Shown: positions 23,454-43,285, counted from the first letter of the stretch. The stretch is DNA of 64,000 nt from Candidatus Vesicomyidisocius sp. Agig_15_S12 (GCA_021730225.1 CP072532.1:19230-83229), one strand, 5' to 3'. Notes: a model not told the origin generated them from the sequence alone. Program-made: numbers and translations.

Positions 23454-24365
23454 ATGAGTGAACAGAAAAATCCTTTCCCAGGTGAAAATAATACAGGGCA
23501 TTTTTGGGATGAAGAAAATGATATTAGAGAGCTAAATAATCGCCCGCCAAGATGGTATATGTTGGCATTATATATGGGTACACTTGCTGTTATTGTTTAT
23601 GCGTTTTACTATCCAACTATTCCTTGGTTTGGTGAGCATAATAAAGGTTTTTCTAATTGGACACAAATTAGTGAAATGAATGAAAGCGTTTCTAAATTAG
23701 AGGCCTATCGTGAAGAAAGGTTTGCTGGTACTGAAAAAGCTATTGCTGAAAAATCACTAGAAGAAATTATACTTGATGATGAATTAAGAACTTATGCTAT
23801 TAAAACGTCTAAAGTGTTATTTGGTGATAATTGTTCGGCTTGTCATGGCGCTGCTGGTCAGGGTAATATAGGGTTTCCTGTTTTAGCTGATGATGATTGG
23901 TTATATGGAGGAAAATTAGAACAAATTAGTACTAGTATTACGGGTGGACGAAAAGGAAGAATGCCTGCACGTATGCTTGGTATTTCAGATGCTGAGGCTA
24001 GTACGTTAGCTACTTTCTTGATTGAAACAGGTAAAGGTAAAAAAGGAAATTCTGACCATACTACTACTATCTCTAAAGCACTATATATGAATAAAGGTTG
24101 TATTGCTTGTCATGGTCCTAATATGAAGGGCAATCAATTGTTAGGTAGTGTTAATTTAAGTGATGGTATTTATCGTTTTAAAGCAGATAATCAACATGCG
24201 TCAATTGTACGTATAATTCTACATGGTGTAAATCAAGTAAACGATCCATTAACGCAAGATGCTGTTATGCCATCATTTGGTCATTCAAGTATTATCAATT
24301 CTACGCAAATTAAAAAACTTGCTGTTTATGTGCATCAATTAGGGGGGGGTGTTTCTGTTAAATAA
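23454..24365 (+). CDS. ccoP: cbb3-type cytochrome c oxidase subunit III (diheme)
   Basis: TGHFWD...IRELNNRPPRW, CSACHG, DDDWLYGG, CIACHG, MPSF. Confidence 0.96.
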   Translation: MSEQKNPFPGENNTGHFWDEENDIRELNNRPPRWYMLALYMGTLAVIVYAFYYPTIPWFGEHNKGFSNWTQISEMNESVSKLEAYREERFAGTEKAIAEKSLEEIILDDELRTYAIKTSKVLFGDNCSACHGAAGQGNIGFPVLADDDWLYGGKLEQISTSITGGRKGRMPARMLGISDAEASTLATFLIETGKGKKGNSDHTTTISKALYMNKGCIACHGPNMKGNQLLGSVNLSDGIYRFKADNQHASIVRIILHGVNQVNDPLTQDAVMPSFGHSSIINSTQIKKLAVYVHQLGGGVSVK

Positions 24366-24479: not shown

Positions 24480-24555
24480 GCCGAAGTAGCATAGTTGGTA
24501 GTGCAACTGATTTGTAATCAGTAGGTCGCCAGTTCGAGTCCGGCCTTCGGCACCA
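24480..24555 (+). tRNA. tRNA-Thr(UGU)
   Basis: 76-nt cloverleaf GCCGAAG...CTTCGGCACCA with anticodon loop TTTGTAA and TTCGA T-loop. Confidence 0.96.
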
Positions 24556-24739
24556 TATTTACGAGTAGGACTACATTATTTTATTTTCCTGTTAAATATT
24601 ATTTTTTTAATTATTTTTAGATACAGTTATAACTATGATAGATAAGGTAAATTATACTAGGGTAAAAATGATGAGGAAAGTTATCCATGAATATTTTTAT
24701 ATTGGTAACGGAATATGTGTAAACAGCTAAAAGAGAAAG

Positions 24740-25093
24740 TAATATTAAATTTATTTATTAAGACTAATATAATGGAGTTTTTGTTAAATTAGTTGTTGAT
24801 ATCAAACTAGTTTGTTCTAATTCAACATTAACTAGCGCTATAGTGTAGTATTATTTAACAGTAGTATTTGCTTGTTTGGCATGGCACCAGCGTATTCTAA
24901 ATTAGTTGTGTTGTAGATGTTTTAAACAATAATGTGCCAGAAGATTAGTTAATAGTGTACCTGTATTGCTATAGGTATGTTGTGTAAAGTTAGTACTTAG
25001 ACGTAGACGTTCAAATAAGATCAAAAAATTATAGAAATCATAGTTGTTAACTATATAAAATACAAGCATTAAAGTGCTTAGAAATTTATTCAT
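24740..25093 (-). pseudogene. lolA: Degraded outer-membrane lipoprotein chaperone LolA
   Basis: ATG overlaps the ftsK 3' end (canonical ftsK-lolA order). Across frameshifts and stops it reads MNKFLSTLMLVF..STNFTQHTYSNTGTLLT / SSGTLLFK / PNKQILLLNNTTL* / VNVELEQTSL..LTKTPLY*. Left boundary approximate. Confidence 0.8.
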
Positions 25094-27353
25094 TAGTAGT
25101 TATAGGTATAGGTGCTAATACTTGGCGATTTCCAGTACTGTTCATACTGCTTACTACACCACTAGCTTCCATGTCTTCAATAATAAGCGCTGCACGGTTG
25201 TAACCAATTCGCATACGTCGTTGTAGAATAGAAATTGAAGCGCGCTGTGATAAAGTTACAATTTTCACAGCTTTATCATATAAAACATCAGATGTTTTAT
25301 TTAAGTCTTGTAGATTATTTGATTTACTATGAGTATTAAGAATACCATCTAGATAATTAGTTTCATAGTTGTCTTTTAAAAAATTAACTACGCGTTCAAT
25401 CTCATCATCGTCAACAAAGGCACCGTGTATGCGAATAAGGTGTGACATACCTGGCGTCATATATAGCATATCACCCATACCAAGTAATTGTTCAGCGCCA
25501 CTTTGGTCAAGAATGGTGCGTGAATCAACTTTTGAAGAGACTTTGAAAGCAATACGTGTGGGTATATTAGATTTGATTAGACCAGTAATAACATCTACAC
25601 TTGGACGTTGTGTGGCAATAATAATGTGAATACCTGCAGCTCGTGATTTTTGTGTTAGACGTATAATAAGTGTCTCAACACGTTTAGCTTTGGTACGATC
25701 TTCTTGGGCTAGTGTGCCAAGCATATCAGCATATTCATCAATAACTATCATAATCATAGGCAATGCTTTTAACTCAGTTATTGGTTTACTTTCATTAGTA
25801 GTATCTTGATTAAATAACTGATAAAGTAAAGGTTCTCCCTTATCTTTAGATTTTTTTAGCTTGTTATTAAAGCCTTTAATATGACGCACTCCAAATTTAG
25901 CTAATAATGAATAACGACGTTCCATTTCATTAATACACCAGCACAAGACAGAAGCTGCTTGGTTCATATCTGTTACAACAGGTGTGAGCAAGTGTGGAAT
26001 GTCGGCATAACAAGCTAGTTCAACAATTTTAGGGTCAATCATAATAATACGTACTTCTTTTGGCTTAGCTTTGAAGAGCACACTTAGGATTATGGTATTT
26101 AGTCCAACTGATTTACCCATACCAGTTGCACCAGCAACGAGCAAGTGTGGCATTTTTGTTAGATTGGTAATAATTGGAATCCCGTTAATATCTTTACCTA
26201 AACCTATGGTTAAGGCAGAGTCAGATTTAATAAAATTTTCAGAAGCAAAAATTTCTTTAAGATTGATTATTTCACGTTGTTTATTTGGAATTTCTAAGCC
26301 AATAACAGGTTTTCCAGGGATAATGTCAACAATACGTACACTTTTAACTAATAAAGCACGTGCTAAGTCTTTGTTAAGATTTATAATTTGATTAACTTTA
26401 ATGCCAGGAGCTAGTGAAAGTTCAAATTGAGTGACGACAGGACCAGGAGTGACTGTGGTAACTAAAACATCAAAACCAAAATCTTTAAGTTTTACTTCAA
26501 CTTGGCGTGACATGGTTTCTAATGTTTCTTTAGAGTATCCAGTGGTGTTGATAGTTGGTTCGTTAAGTAAGTTTAAATTTGGCAAACCAGTCATGGTTAT
26601 CGTATTAAATAGATTAGAGGAAAAAACTTTTTTAAAACTTTTATTTGGTTTTTCCTTGGTTTTTTTTATTTTGGTAAGTATACTGGTTTTAGTATTTGAT
26701 TGTCTAATAGGGGTAGAAATTTTTATAGCTTTTTTGGTTTTAACTTGTGTTCTAATATTATGTATTTTTTTAAAAAAATTATTGAACATATTGTTAGTAA
26801 AGGAGAAAATATTATTCCATGAATAGCTACTGACAATGCTGAAACTAATCATTATAATACTGAGATAAATAATTAGTGATGTAGAACCAAATATAACACT
26901 AAAATAACGGTGTATATTAACGCCAATATAGCCGCCAGATGCTCCTATATCTGTAAAGTTTTGAACTAAAAACGCTGCACTAAAAGAAATTAGTGTCAAT
27001 AGTGAAATAAAACGAATAGTAATTGTTGAGTATTTATACTTCTTTTGTTCAGTATTTTTGTGGATTTTCCATCCTAACCATATTAGTGAGGCTGGTATTA
27101 AATAGGCACTATAACCTAAATTAGATAAAGAGATATCACTTAAATATGCACCAAATACACCAGCAAGGTTAGCAACTGGTGCAATTAGAACAACGTTACC
27201 TGACCAAGGGTTTTCATTAGCAGAATAGGTAACTAAGGCGGATAAAAAAATAAGACCTATGGTACTTAAAAATATAAATAGTATTTCACTGGTTATTTTA
27301 GTACGAGGTTTTTGTGGGTATATTTTTGTACTTATTTTTTTATTCTTTTTCAA
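25086..27353 (-). CDS. ftsK: DNA translocase FtsK
   Basis: N-terminal TM domain, GPVVTQFE, PHLLVAGATGMGKSV, MIDPK, IDEYAD, GIHIIIATQRPSVDVITG, GAEQLLGMGDML, gamma domain QRRMRIGYNRAA. TTG start inferred. Confidence 0.97.
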   Translation of the reverse strand: MKKNKKISTKIYPQKPRTKITSEILFIFLSTIGLIFLSALVTYSANENPWSGNVVLIAPVANLAGVFGAYLSDISLSNLGYSAYLIPASLIWLGWKIHKNTEQKKYKYSTITIRFISLLTLISFSAAFLVQNFTDIGASGGYIGVNIHRYFSVIFGSTSLIIYLSIIMISFSIVSSYSWNNIFSFTNNMFNNFFKKIHNIRTQVKTKKAIKISTPIRQSNTKTSILTKIKKTKEKPNKSFKKVFSSNLFNTITMTGLPNLNLLNEPTINTTGYSKETLETMSRQVEVKLKDFGFDVLVTTVTPGPVVTQFELSLAPGIKVNQIINLNKDLARALLVKSVRIVDIIPGKPVIGLEIPNKQREIINLKEIFASENFIKSDSALTIGLGKDINGIPIITNLTKMPHLLVAGATGMGKSVGLNTIILSVLFKAKPKEVRIIMIDPKIVELACYADIPHLLTPVVTDMNQAASVLCWCINEMERRYSLLAKFGVRHIKGFNNKLKKSKDKGEPLLYQLFNQDTTNESKPITELKALPMIMIVIDEYADMLGTLAQEDRTKAKRVETLIIRLTQKSRAAGIHIIIATQRPSVDVITGLIKSNIPTRIAFKVSSKVDSRTILDQSGAEQLLGMGDMLYMTPGMSHLIRIHGAFVDDDEIERVVNFLKDNYETNYLDGILNTHSKSNNLQDLNKTSDVLYDKAVKIVTLSQRASISILQRRMRIGYNRAALIIEDMEASGVVSSMNSTGNRQVLAPIPITTNE

Positions 27354-31484: not shown

Positions 31485-32408
31485 ATGTCTAAGGTGTTTA
31501 TTGTTCTTATCTTTTTATTTTTAAGTTCTTGTATTAGTAAAACACCACAAACTATTATTGGTACAACTATGGGTACTGATTATAGTATCAAGGTTTTTAA
31601 TATCCAAGTTTCAAAGTTAATTATTGATCAACGTCTTAATGAAATTGAGAAAATATTTTCTACTTGGGATGAGACTTCCGAGCTTTCAAAATTAAACAGA
31701 GCGCCAATTAATCAATGGATAAAGGTATCAGATGAGTTGTTTTTTGTTTTACTCCAAGCAAAAGAAATATATAAGCAAACGCAAGGTTTTTTTGATCCTG
31801 GTATAGGTCGTTTAATTGATGTTTGGGGTTTTGGTGTTGTTAAGACACAGGTAAAACCTAATCAGGAAGAGATATCTAAAGCATTAGCAATATCATCGAT
31901 TGAGTATGTACATTTAGGCGATCTACGAGTTAAAAAGCTTAAAGATATTTATATTAATTTATCTGCTATTGTTAAAGGTTATAGTGTAGATATTGTGGCA
32001 AATATGCTAATTCAGCAAGGACTTAAAAATTTTATAGTGGAAATTGGTGGTGAGGTGATGGCCCAAGGTCAATGGACAATTGGTATTGAAAAGCCGAATC
32101 ATAGCCTGCCAATTGCCATTGAATTACAAAATTTAGCTATTGCCACTTCAGGAGATTATCGTAATTATCTTGTTTGGCAAGAAAAAAAATATCAACATAT
32201 TTTAAATCCCAGTACAGGATTACCTGCTAATACTGATCTAAGTTCTGTTAGCGTGATTCATGATAGCGCGATGATCGCAGATGCTTATGCAACTGCTATG
32301 ATGGCAATGGGTAGTCAAAAAGCTAAAATATTAGCAGAAGAACTTAACTTGTCAGTAGTGTTTATTTTGAATCAGTATTATGATTTTGAAGTACTACAAA
32401 TTCATTAA
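31485..32408 (+). CDS. apbE: FAD:protein FMN transferase, lipoprotein
   Basis: Lipobox LSSC, GTTMGT, SELSKLN, DVWGFG, NLSAIVKGY.VD, VEIGGE, ATSGDYRNY, ADAYATA. Confidence 0.95.
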   Translation: MSKVFIVLIFLFLSSCISKTPQTIIGTTMGTDYSIKVFNIQVSKLIIDQRLNEIEKIFSTWDETSELSKLNRAPINQWIKVSDELFFVLLQAKEIYKQTQGFFDPGIGRLIDVWGFGVVKTQVKPNQEEISKALAISSIEYVHLGDLRVKKLKDIYINLSAIVKGYSVDIVANMLIQQGLKNFIVEIGGEVMAQGQWTIGIEKPNHSLPIAIELQNLAIATSGDYRNYLVWQEKKYQHILNPSTGLPANTDLSSVSVIHDSAMIADAYATAMMAMGSQKAKILAEELNLSVVFILNQYYDFEVLQIH

Positions 32409-42604: not shown

Positions 42605-43285
42605 TTATTTAGTGGTTGAGATTAGCTTTTTTACTTCAAGTTCAGTTTTTTGTTCATTTTTAAACATTTTAATTCTATCACGTTCTATTTCCGCTTTGGG
42701 GCGAGTTTTTATATAATCAAATAATTTGATAACCTTGTAAACACCTTTGGCTTTAGCGGCAGTTTTGGCGGCCATGTCTGCTTCTCGTTTAGTTACGGCC
42801 CCCATAAGATAAACTACCTGATCTTCAGTCATCACCTGAACGTGGGTTGGATGAAATACCTCCTGATTTTGAAATAGTAACTCAACTTGTATAGTGATAG
42901 TTGAATCTTTAGCTCTACTAAGTAGTCCATTTGAAGGACCTAATTTAATTTCATTAAATATTTGTGAAATTTTTGGTGCTTGAAGTTGTGCTTGTTTACT
43001 TGTATAAATACGTATCTTAGGCGTTGCTACTTCTCCAGTAATGAGTACTGTTTTATTATAAACCATGAAATTAAGATGTGCATTGTTTAATATTAAATCT
43101 TTGTTAGACCAGTTAAATAACCTTAGAATAATAGTTTTATCATCTAACACTTCTCCAGCACTACGCCTATCATTACTTACTGAGATAATTGAGCTAATAG
43201 TTGAAACCCCTTGAATAGCTGATACACAAGCTGTTAAAAGTAAGAAGTTTATTATTAGAAGTGTTGATAGAATGAATTTTTTCAT
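42605..43285 (-). CDS. dolP: Dual-BON-domain outer-membrane lipoprotein (DolP/YraP)
   Basis: Lipobox LTAC, DRRSAGEVLDD, VLITGEV, VVYLMGAVT, GVYKVIKLFDY. Confidence 0.85.
   Translation of the reverse strand: MKKFILSTLLIINFLLLTACVSAIQGVSTISSIISVSNDRRSAGEVLDDKTIILRLFNWSNKDLILNNAHLNFMVYNKTVLITGEVATPKIRIYTSKQAQLQAPKISQIFNEIKLGPSNGLLSRAKDSTITIQVELLFQNQEVFHPTHVQVMTEDQVVYLMGAVTKREADMAAKTAAKAKGVYKVIKLFDYIKTRPKAEIERDRIKMFKNEQKTELEVKKLISTTK

Follow-up and report, generated by a model that had tools for sequence, protein, structure and literature searches.

To our knowledge, all of the known proteobacterial machines for outer-membrane assembly (Bam and Lpt) need lipoproteins that have been delivered by the Lol system. 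LolA is regarded as broadly conserved wherever LolCDE or LolDF occurs, LolDF together with LolA being the typical architecture (PMC11784454), and several diderms that are devoid of LolB, including Caulobacter, Helicobacter and Borrelia, combine LolDF with a bifunctional LolA (PMC11784454, PMC7240156). In Escherichia coli the lethality that follows the loss of LolA and LolB (hereafter LolAB) has been tied to the mislocalised lipoproteins Lpp and OsmB, which occur only among near relatives of E. coli (PMC11784454), and under defined conditions LolAB are dispensable and LolCDE is essential, which implies a second route (Grabowicz & Silhavy 2017, as summarised in PMC10659402). A natural reduction of the pathway is on record for Buchnera aphidicola APS and Sg, which keep LolC and LolD, carry lolE as a pseudogene and lack LolA and LolB (PMC3246468). 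Here we examine the lolA locus behind ftsK in Candidatus (Ca.) Vesicomyidisocius sp. Agig_15_S12, which lies in a window of 64,000 nucleotides (the whole stretch of DNA that was analysed, C1:19230-83229 of the genome), together with what remains of the Lol pathway elsewhere in that genome. The lolA gene is dead; lolB is also dead and was lost before lolA, which is new here; and the inner-membrane pump persists under purifying selection. The organism is a natural case of a cell that lives without LolA and LolB.

Agig_15_S12 is a sulfur-oxidising clam symbiont of the Vesicomyosocius type, maternally (vertically) transmitted, and its AT-rich genome consists of a single contig of 1,033,397 bp that is rated 99.98% complete. 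It belongs to a clade of four ~1.0-Mb genomes, the other three being those of Ca. Vesicomyidisocius calyptogenae (1,022,154 bp), Ca. Vesicomyidisocius sp. SY067_SCS001 (1,032,764 bp) and Ca. Vesicomyosocius sp. Pext_18_S21 (1,023,779 bp); a 7-kb concatenate gives the clade 100% support and the branching inside it only 53-55%. Six genomes of the genus served for comparison of the lolA locus. Genus-mates referred to below include Ca. Ruthia magnifica Cm (1,160,782 bp) and two further Ca. Ruthia spp. (G002 and G009).

An intact lolA frame of 194-200 codons stands directly after ftsK in Pext_18_S21, R. magnifica, G002 and G009, and the order ftsK then lolA recurs in 43 of 80 related loci. At this place in Agig_15_S12 there are ~530 bp between ftsK and a tRNA-Thr gene, in which the minus strand holds no long frame: the uninterrupted ~190-200 codons with a signal peptide that are expected of LolA are missing, and an open reading frame (ORF) of 63 amino acids (aa) is the sole open piece. 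Descent from lolA is indicated by the orthologous position downstream of ftsK and by a DNA alignment in which the remnant can be followed, base for base, along the intact lolA of the four genomes just named. When the LolA of Pext_18_S21 was compared by tblastn with the whole 1.03-Mb genome, a single match was returned, at genome 43996..44322 or window 24767..25093 on the minus strand (50% identity over 113 aa, 2 stops, E 2.7e-19); only residues 1-106 of the relative's LolA align to the remnant, with stops, and a genus-aware LolA profile matches it over positions 11-120 of 214 (E 9.6e-8) with 2 TAA codons inside the match. One of the small lesions, an in-frame change of -6 nucleotides (nt) in the signal-peptide region, is common to the intact copy of Pext_18_S21 and hence not disabling. 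The lesion map against that copy further comprises a +6-nt tandem duplication of ACGTCT, indels of -1, +1, +2, +5 and +2 nt, and TAG and TAA stops in the ancestral frame, and a 382-bp deletion has taken away lolA from nt 325 to its end (the 3' 249 nt) along with ~133 bp of downstream spacer. The Pfam family of LolA, PF03548, matched nothing at E<=10 in a six-frame search of the whole genome; the 63-aa ORF belongs to no Pfam family and gives E 0.033 with a custom LolA hidden Markov model (HMM). In short, lolA in Agig_15_S12 is a dead gene.

The remnant of lolB lies outside the window, at genome ~261750..262275 on the plus strand, and was located by means of the neighbourhood hemA-lolB-ruvB in G002. 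It stands between hemA and ruvB, is full-length with stops and frameshifts, and is 51-61% identical to the LolB of G002. The LolB family PF03550, which matches a 173-aa lolB in the 1.2-1.6-Mb genus-mates, finds nothing at E<=10 in Agig_15_S12 and is absent too from its three sisters. All four small genomes have four lolB lesions in common, namely a 6-bp deletion with a TAG adjacent to it and two +1 insertions, which dates the inactivation of lolB to before the split of these lineages. The condition of lolA varies from one of these genomes to the next: the gene is intact (197 aa) in Pext_18_S21, split by a 4-bp deletion in V. calyptogenae, burdened with 4 stops and a 3' deletion in SY067_SCS001, and furthest decayed in Agig_15_S12. 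In the LolB-less Pext_18_S21 lolA is still intact; lolB died first, in the common ancestor, and lolA decayed later, separately from lolB, in three of the four lineages. Agig_15_S12 and SY067_SCS001 share one -1/+1 indel pair in A-runs of lolA, which could be inherited or parallel. The ratio of nonsynonymous to synonymous divergence (dN/dS; pairwise Nei-Gojobori counts from our own script, with dS of 0.10-0.20 within the four-genome clade) is 0.08-0.14 for lolA among genomes with intact LolAB, 0.30 between Pext_18_S21 and V. calyptogenae, and 0.80-0.88 between Pext_18_S21 and either SY067_SCS001 or Agig_15_S12, and lolA has therefore evolved nearly neutrally on the last two lines.

Measured against the canonical gammaproteobacterial Lol pathway, Agig_15_S12 has the ATP-binding cassette (ABC) extractor and lacks functional LolA, LolB and Lnt. 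The extractor is of the LolDF type, with one lolC/E-like gene that adjoins lolD and is closest to characterised LolF: TIGR02212 gives a single match in the genome, and the best PDB matches of lolF are the LolF chains 9w37, 9w35 and 9w2w (~300 bits), with LolE and LolC ranking behind them. In comparisons among the LolB-less four, lolF has a dN/dS of 0.11-0.21 and lolD one of 0.09-0.20, close to the 0.07-0.18 of the LolAB-plus genomes. The lolF-lolD pair is under purifying selection, which suggests that it retains the LolDF function of freeing lipoproteins from the inner membrane at the expense of ATP. Within the LolF periplasmic domain, Agig_15_S12 alone has, in the hook region (residues ~171-185), NIIGIQPRFKRF -> NIIDIQPRFKSF, and both of the residues changed are invariant in eight genus-mates and in solved LolF. 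The Gly of this change aligns with what we take to be G176 of E. coli LolC. That numbering is consistent with the placing of the LolC Hook at residues 167-179 (PMC10659402). The hook changes might reflect relaxed constraint on a LolA-docking surface, in a sample that is small.

Lipoprotein maturation is likewise only partly represented. Both lgt and lspA are intact in Agig_15_S12, and a search for Lnt (TIGR00546) gave only a 27-bit match, to the CN-hydrolase portion of a protein of 627 aa. The lnt gene is absent from every genus-mate tested, and genome G007 has an lnt pseudogene with 4 stops (G007:C1:109324-110448); the pseudogene and the genus-wide absence together place the loss of N-acylation before the losses of LolB and LolA. 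The lipoproteins are therefore presumably diacylated. The absence of Lnt is in keeping with a LolDF-type pump, since Lnt is dispensable in several species that include organisms of the LolDF type (PMC7240156; PMC11784454).

A genome-wide heuristic lipobox scan, followed by family searches, recovered a set of predicted lipoproteins (Table 1), of which the essential BamD and LptE, among others, are presumably located in the outer membrane. The three sisters retain the lipobox Cys in 7/7 of the lipoproteins checked (BamC, BamD, BamE, LptE, DolP, the NlpD-like protein and SLT_4), and the seven genes are open there except for dolP of Pext_18_S21, which has one stop in the aligned stretch. The census, in which ORFs of at least 60 aa were scanned, included no small lipoprotein resembling Lpp or OsmB. 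An earlier note on this DNA had described a lolA pseudogene in its canonical place after ftsK in an organism that still encodes outer-membrane-type lipoproteins, and had pointed to DolP and ApbE as intact lipobox proteins of the window. The remnant is where it was said to be, by DNA alignment, lesion map and the sole tblastn match alike; both lipobox proteins are intact; and the wider census, from BamC, BamD, BamE and LptE to Pal, bears out the general statement.

Table 1. Features of the lolA locus, the Lol pump and the lipoprotein set of Agig_15_S12, in window coordinates unless marked as genome coordinates
Feature	Position	Strand	Description
lolA pseudogene	24761..25093	-	first ~324 nt of the gene; seven small indels; TAG and TAA in the ancestral frame
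Residual 63-aa ORF	24902..25093	-	covers what were the signal peptide and first strands of LolA; its start overlaps the stop of ftsK
382-bp deletion junction	24756..24765 (~24760)	.	from alignment to V. calyptogenae and Pext_18_S21, both of which retain the deleted stretch
ftsK	25086..27353	-	intact, 755 aa; conserved upstream neighbour of lolA
tRNA-Thr (TGT)	24480..24555	+	ARAGORN; conserved in all three sisters; marks the downstream edge of the former lolA locus
lolF (single lolC/E-type gene)	genome 812826..814061 (outside window)		TIGR02212, 405 bits (cut-off 362)
lolD	genome 814054..814737 (outside window)		TIGR02211, 309.3 bits (cut-off 307.75); overlaps lolF
DolP-like BON-domain lipoprotein	42605..43285	-	intact; lipobox LLLTAC; NF008247, E 3.3e-33; PF04972
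ApbE-family lipoprotein	31485..32408	+	intact; lipobox FLSSC; PF02424, 267.8 bits
BamD			lipobox LINGC; PF13525, E 8.9e-51
LptE			lipobox LSSC; PF04390, 31 bits; adjoins holA
BamC			lipobox LGGC; PF06804
BamE			lipobox LSAC; NF008585
Pal			lipobox LSSC; TIGR02802, E 2.4e-32
NlpD-like M23 protein			lipobox ITSC; NF008123
SLT_4 transglycosylase			lipobox LSGC; PF19489
Two Tat-signal proteins			lipobox-like motifs

Other parts of the envelope are eroding in this clade as well. The pal gene is intact in V. calyptogenae and, with a 14-aa internal deletion, in Agig_15_S12; it is a stop-riddled pseudogene in Pext_18_S21 (L046 ~7500..8012) and has been mostly deleted in SY067_SCS001 (L049 6989..7141). 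In G002, lptA is a 168-aa gene that follows lptC, and of this gene Agig_15_S12 retains a ~120-bp trace (39 aa, 44% identity, one stop) in the 320-bp gap between lptC and sat (genome C1:96447..96767). LptA has been reported as missing or pseudogenised in the Vesicomyosocius clade (preprint 10.1101/2020.10.19.345819); the main text of that preprint contains 0 occurrences of lolA, and a search for 'lol' in another clam-symbiont preprint found nothing. Three proteins that serve periplasmic transit or outer-membrane insertion (LptA, LolA and LolB) are gone and the membrane-embedded machines stay, and one may speculate that these losses reflect a tighter envelope or a bridge-type transfer.

Two further envelope proteins of this genus are unusual. 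LptC (genome C1:95404..96447, plus strand) is unusually long throughout the genus (328-348 aa); its C-terminal part has a weak LptA/LptD_N-like match (PF03968, E 0.0022, below cut-off), and a Cys that follows its membrane anchor in a lipobox-like setting (LFSC) occurs only in the four small genomes. That the long form is an lptC-lptA fusion of the LolAB-less clade is ruled out, the 328-aa form standing beside a separate lptA in G002, G009 and R. magnifica. MlaA (PF04333, 220 bits; genome C1:843589..844275, minus strand) has an ordinary signal peptide, and its lipobox Cys is absent genus-wide; this absence extends to LolAB-plus genomes, which rules out the loss of LolAB as its cause.

The surroundings of the lolA remnant offer some observations of their own. 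The product of ftsK is 90% identical to the FtsK of Pext_18_S21. The spacer between tRNA-Thr and the remnant (window 24560..24740), within which a 31-aa ORF can be read on the plus strand (24635..24730), is conserved at the nucleotide level in V. calyptogenae and Pext_18_S21 and is not so conserved in the Ruthia genomes. Beyond the tRNA, a run of eight G (24342..24349), unusual for so AT-rich a genome and a possible slippage site, falls in the last codons of a 303-aa ORF (23454..24365) that appears from its sequence to be ccoP-like.

We consider it reasonably probable that LolAB have been lost stepwise in the course of genome reduction, that the extraction of lipoproteins by LolDF is still needed, and that delivery to the outer membrane is independent of LolAB. 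On this account Lgt and LspA would go on lipidating the lipoproteins, LolDF would release them from the inner membrane, and their onward passage to the outer membrane would need neither LolA nor LolB, following the route, independent of LolAB and dependent on LolCDE, to which the genetics of E. coli points. The lineage probably survived the loss because it is without Lpp-type lipoproteins, the cargo whose presence renders the loss of LolAB lethal in E. coli, and probably also because a protected intracellular niche relaxes the demand for envelope quality, pal and lptA being subject to erosion too. Several considerations weigh on the other side. LolDF could have been retained for another role, such as ridding the inner membrane of lipoproteins; the four genomes have diverged little (dS 0.10-0.20), so that conservation of the lipobox Cys alone is weak evidence; the dN/dS values come from simple pairwise Nei-Gojobori counts and not from a branch model; the search for a carrier folded two proteins, and a carrier with no likeness to LolA in sequence or fold would escape it; and the decay of pal in two sisters together with the loss of lptA in Agig_15_S12 may amount to a general degeneration of the envelope instead of pointing to a dedicated alternative route.

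The earlier note had presented this organism as a possible model of Lol-independent envelope biogenesis and had left three options for its lipoproteins: a second carrier with the LolA fold, a LolA-independent route, or retention in the inner membrane. Independence of LolAB holds up, both genes being dead, whereas independence of Lol as a whole does not, given that lolF-lolD, lgt and lspA are intact and the pump is under purifying selection. The LolA-independent route fits best of the three, with the amendment that LolDF is probably still required; the retention of LolDF argues against the inner-membrane option, and the HMM searches, the Pfam searches and two predicted folds lend no support to the second carrier. 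The note had further implied that the case stands alone. With Buchnera and E. coli as precedents (PMC3246468 and PMC10659402), it is therefore less singular than that.

Of the competing accounts, the one that fares best, although we think it unlikely, is that the lipoproteins never leave the inner membrane or are released in soluble form, acting across a narrow periplasm, and that LolDF is kept for some other purpose or has simply not yet been lost. Many lipoproteins function when they are made soluble (PMC11784454), the genus-wide MlaA without a lipobox Cys shows that non-lipidated versions of classical lipoproteins already exist, and the decay of pal in SY067_SCS001 and Pext_18_S21 would, like the loss of lptA, fit a degenerating envelope. 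Against this account stand the constraint on lolF and lolD in the LolB-less genomes, where dN/dS is 0.09-0.21 and that of the dead lolA has in an equal span of time been 0.8-0.9, the intact lgt and lspA, and the lipobox Cys that all four genomes keep in each of the seven lipoproteins checked; in E. coli, moreover, LolCDE remains essential after LolAB have been removed (PMC10659402).

Less likely again is the replacement of LolA by a second carrier, be it a very divergent protein of the LolA fold, a periplasmic lipid-binding protein of other descent, or a bridging system of which the long LptC/Lpt machine would be an example. The genus-wide long LptC, with the weak PF03968-like C-terminal part described above, and the presence of two MlaC-like periplasmic proteins are compatible with such a carrier; Lpt-mediated transport of lipoproteins has been proposed, and debated, for Borrelia (PMC11784454); and LolA and LolB are divergent here, LolB scoring only 21-36 bits on PF03550, so that homology searches are not very sensitive in this group. 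Custom HMMs were built from 16 LolA and 9 LolB relatives and run against all six-frame ORFs of at least 30 aa in Agig_15_S12, where they matched only the two remnants; PF17131 (LolA_like) gave nothing, and PF03548, PF17131, the custom HMMs and tblastn detected no intact lolA paralog elsewhere in the genome, PF03550 being equally without a match. A crude signal-peptide filter returned 129 candidates, many of them false positives, from which a subset was picked by hand. None of ~20 secreted-looking ORFs has a LolA-clan domain by Pfam, their families including MlaC (two), MlaA, Lcl_C, HSP20, thioredoxin-like, SCO1, FMN_bind, imelysin, OEP and cytochromes. Two periplasmic candidates without a family were submitted to structure prediction from 41-sequence alignments, and both are predicted to fold unlike LolA. 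The best PDB match of the 222-aa candidate (genome 984967..985635; predicted local distance difference test, pLDDT, 68) is a weak DcrB-like one (E 0.025), with no LolA structure among the 50 PDB matches listed. The 209-aa candidate (genome 269691..270320; pLDDT 85) gives weak matches to TBP-like pseudo-dimers, LolA coming 36th (template-modelling score, TM, 0.10; probability 0.04). Both candidates are rejected as replacements because they are conserved in relatives that encode LolAB.

That the lesions in lolA are errors of sequencing or assembly and that the gene is really intact is very improbable: a -1 and a +1 indel do fall in A-runs, where long-read errors occur, and a 40-nt junction pattern had no match among genome or metagenome contigs, which is uninformative, but consensus errors do not typically take the form of a 382-bp deletion, a 6-bp tandem duplication, insertions of +5 and +2 nt or substitution stops, the neighbours are intact (the 755-aa ftsK included), the genome is a single contig of 99.98% completeness, the dN/dS of the remnant is near-neutral, and sisters sequenced in other projects show independent decay of lolA together with the same dead lolB.

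Stepwise loss of LolAB around a retained LolDF gains a possible wider setting from other genera of the same family. Neither PF03548 nor a genus-aware profile finds LolA in the complete genome of a Ca. Pseudothioglobus sp. (G012; 1,743,937 bp) or in G019, a complete genome likewise from outside the genus, and PF03550 finds no LolB in G012; the best E values of the custom LolA and LolB HMMs over the whole of G012 are 0.98 and 0.65, the ORFs concerned being Skp-like and pilin-like. By tblastn, G012 contains LolF (63% identity), LolD, Lgt, LspA, BamD (LAGC), BamC, BamE, Pal and DolP, and in ~20 loci of the Pseudothioglobus or Thioglobus type with full flanks ftsK has no lolA behind it. The hook region of LolF reads PQSQSY in G012 and PRFKRF in the Ruthia and Vesicomyosocius genomes and in solved LolF. 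If this evidence from sequence holds, the family has lost LolAB repeatedly, perhaps outside obligate symbionts too; LolA and LolB are divergent in this family. We offer, as a tentative proposal that is more doubtful than the account given for the clam symbionts, that the SUP05/Thioglobaceae carry a LolDF-dependent, LolAB-independent means of delivery, which would make LolA and LolB expendable and so allow them to be lost more than once, stepwise in the clam symbionts and perhaps also in free-living lineages. If this is true, comparison of LolAB-plus with LolAB-minus sisters could identify the alternate route that was inferred in E. coli in 2017.

A lone pseudogene in a reductive symbiont would be ordinary, given the precedent of Buchnera, and the value of the present case lies in the series to which it belongs and in the possible free-living parallel. 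The series is a natural one in time, running from intact LolAB in the genomes of 1.2-1.6 Mb, through a dead lolB beside an intact lolA in Pext_18_S21 and a fresh break of lolA in V. calyptogenae, to far-decayed lolA in SY067_SCS001 and Agig_15_S12, with LolDF, Lgt, LspA, BamD and LptE conserved throughout. It constitutes a comparative data set on what replaces LolAB and on the order in which an envelope can be dismantled.

Set beside the suppressor strains of E. coli from which lolA and lolB have been deleted, Agig_15_S12 has in common with them that LolAB are absent and that the ABC extractor is required (E. coli) or conserved (Agig_15_S12), and that the Bam and Lpt lipoproteins are still needed, so that a LolAB-independent route from LolCDE or LolDF is implied. 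The E. coli strains were engineered, whereas the loss in Agig_15_S12 is natural and evolutionary; the extractor consists of LolC and LolE with LolD in the one and is of the single-gene LolF homodimer type, with LolD, in the other; the lipoproteins of Agig_15_S12, which has no Lnt, are presumably diacylated; and the requirement for the extractor is known in E. coli from lethality and is suggested in Agig_15_S12 by purifying selection. The LolB-less diderms resemble Agig_15_S12 in their single lolF-lolD operon, in the absence of LolB and in an Lnt that is dispensable or absent, and Pext_18_S21, with lolA intact and lolB dead, currently looks much like one of them. Organisms of the Caulobacter, Helicobacter and Borrelia type nevertheless keep LolA, which is essential in H. 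pylori, whereas that of Agig_15_S12 is gone, and LolB is primitively absent from them, whereas Agig_15_S12 lost it secondarily within the Gammaproteobacteria. Buchnera and Agig_15_S12 are both gammaproteobacteria that live as obligate symbionts inside cells, and their reduced genomes have lost LolAB and kept inner-membrane Lol components. Buchnera is also without LptD, LptE and the assembly of lipopolysaccharide (PMC3246468), whereas Agig_15_S12 keeps LptC, LptE, BamC, BamD, BamE, Lgt and LspA and has in a 743-aa ORF a candidate for the LptD that Buchnera lost. Unlike in Buchnera, the loss has here been caught in progress, with both remnants still in place, lolA intact in Pext_18_S21, and LolAB intact in the genus-mates of 1.2-1.6 Mb.

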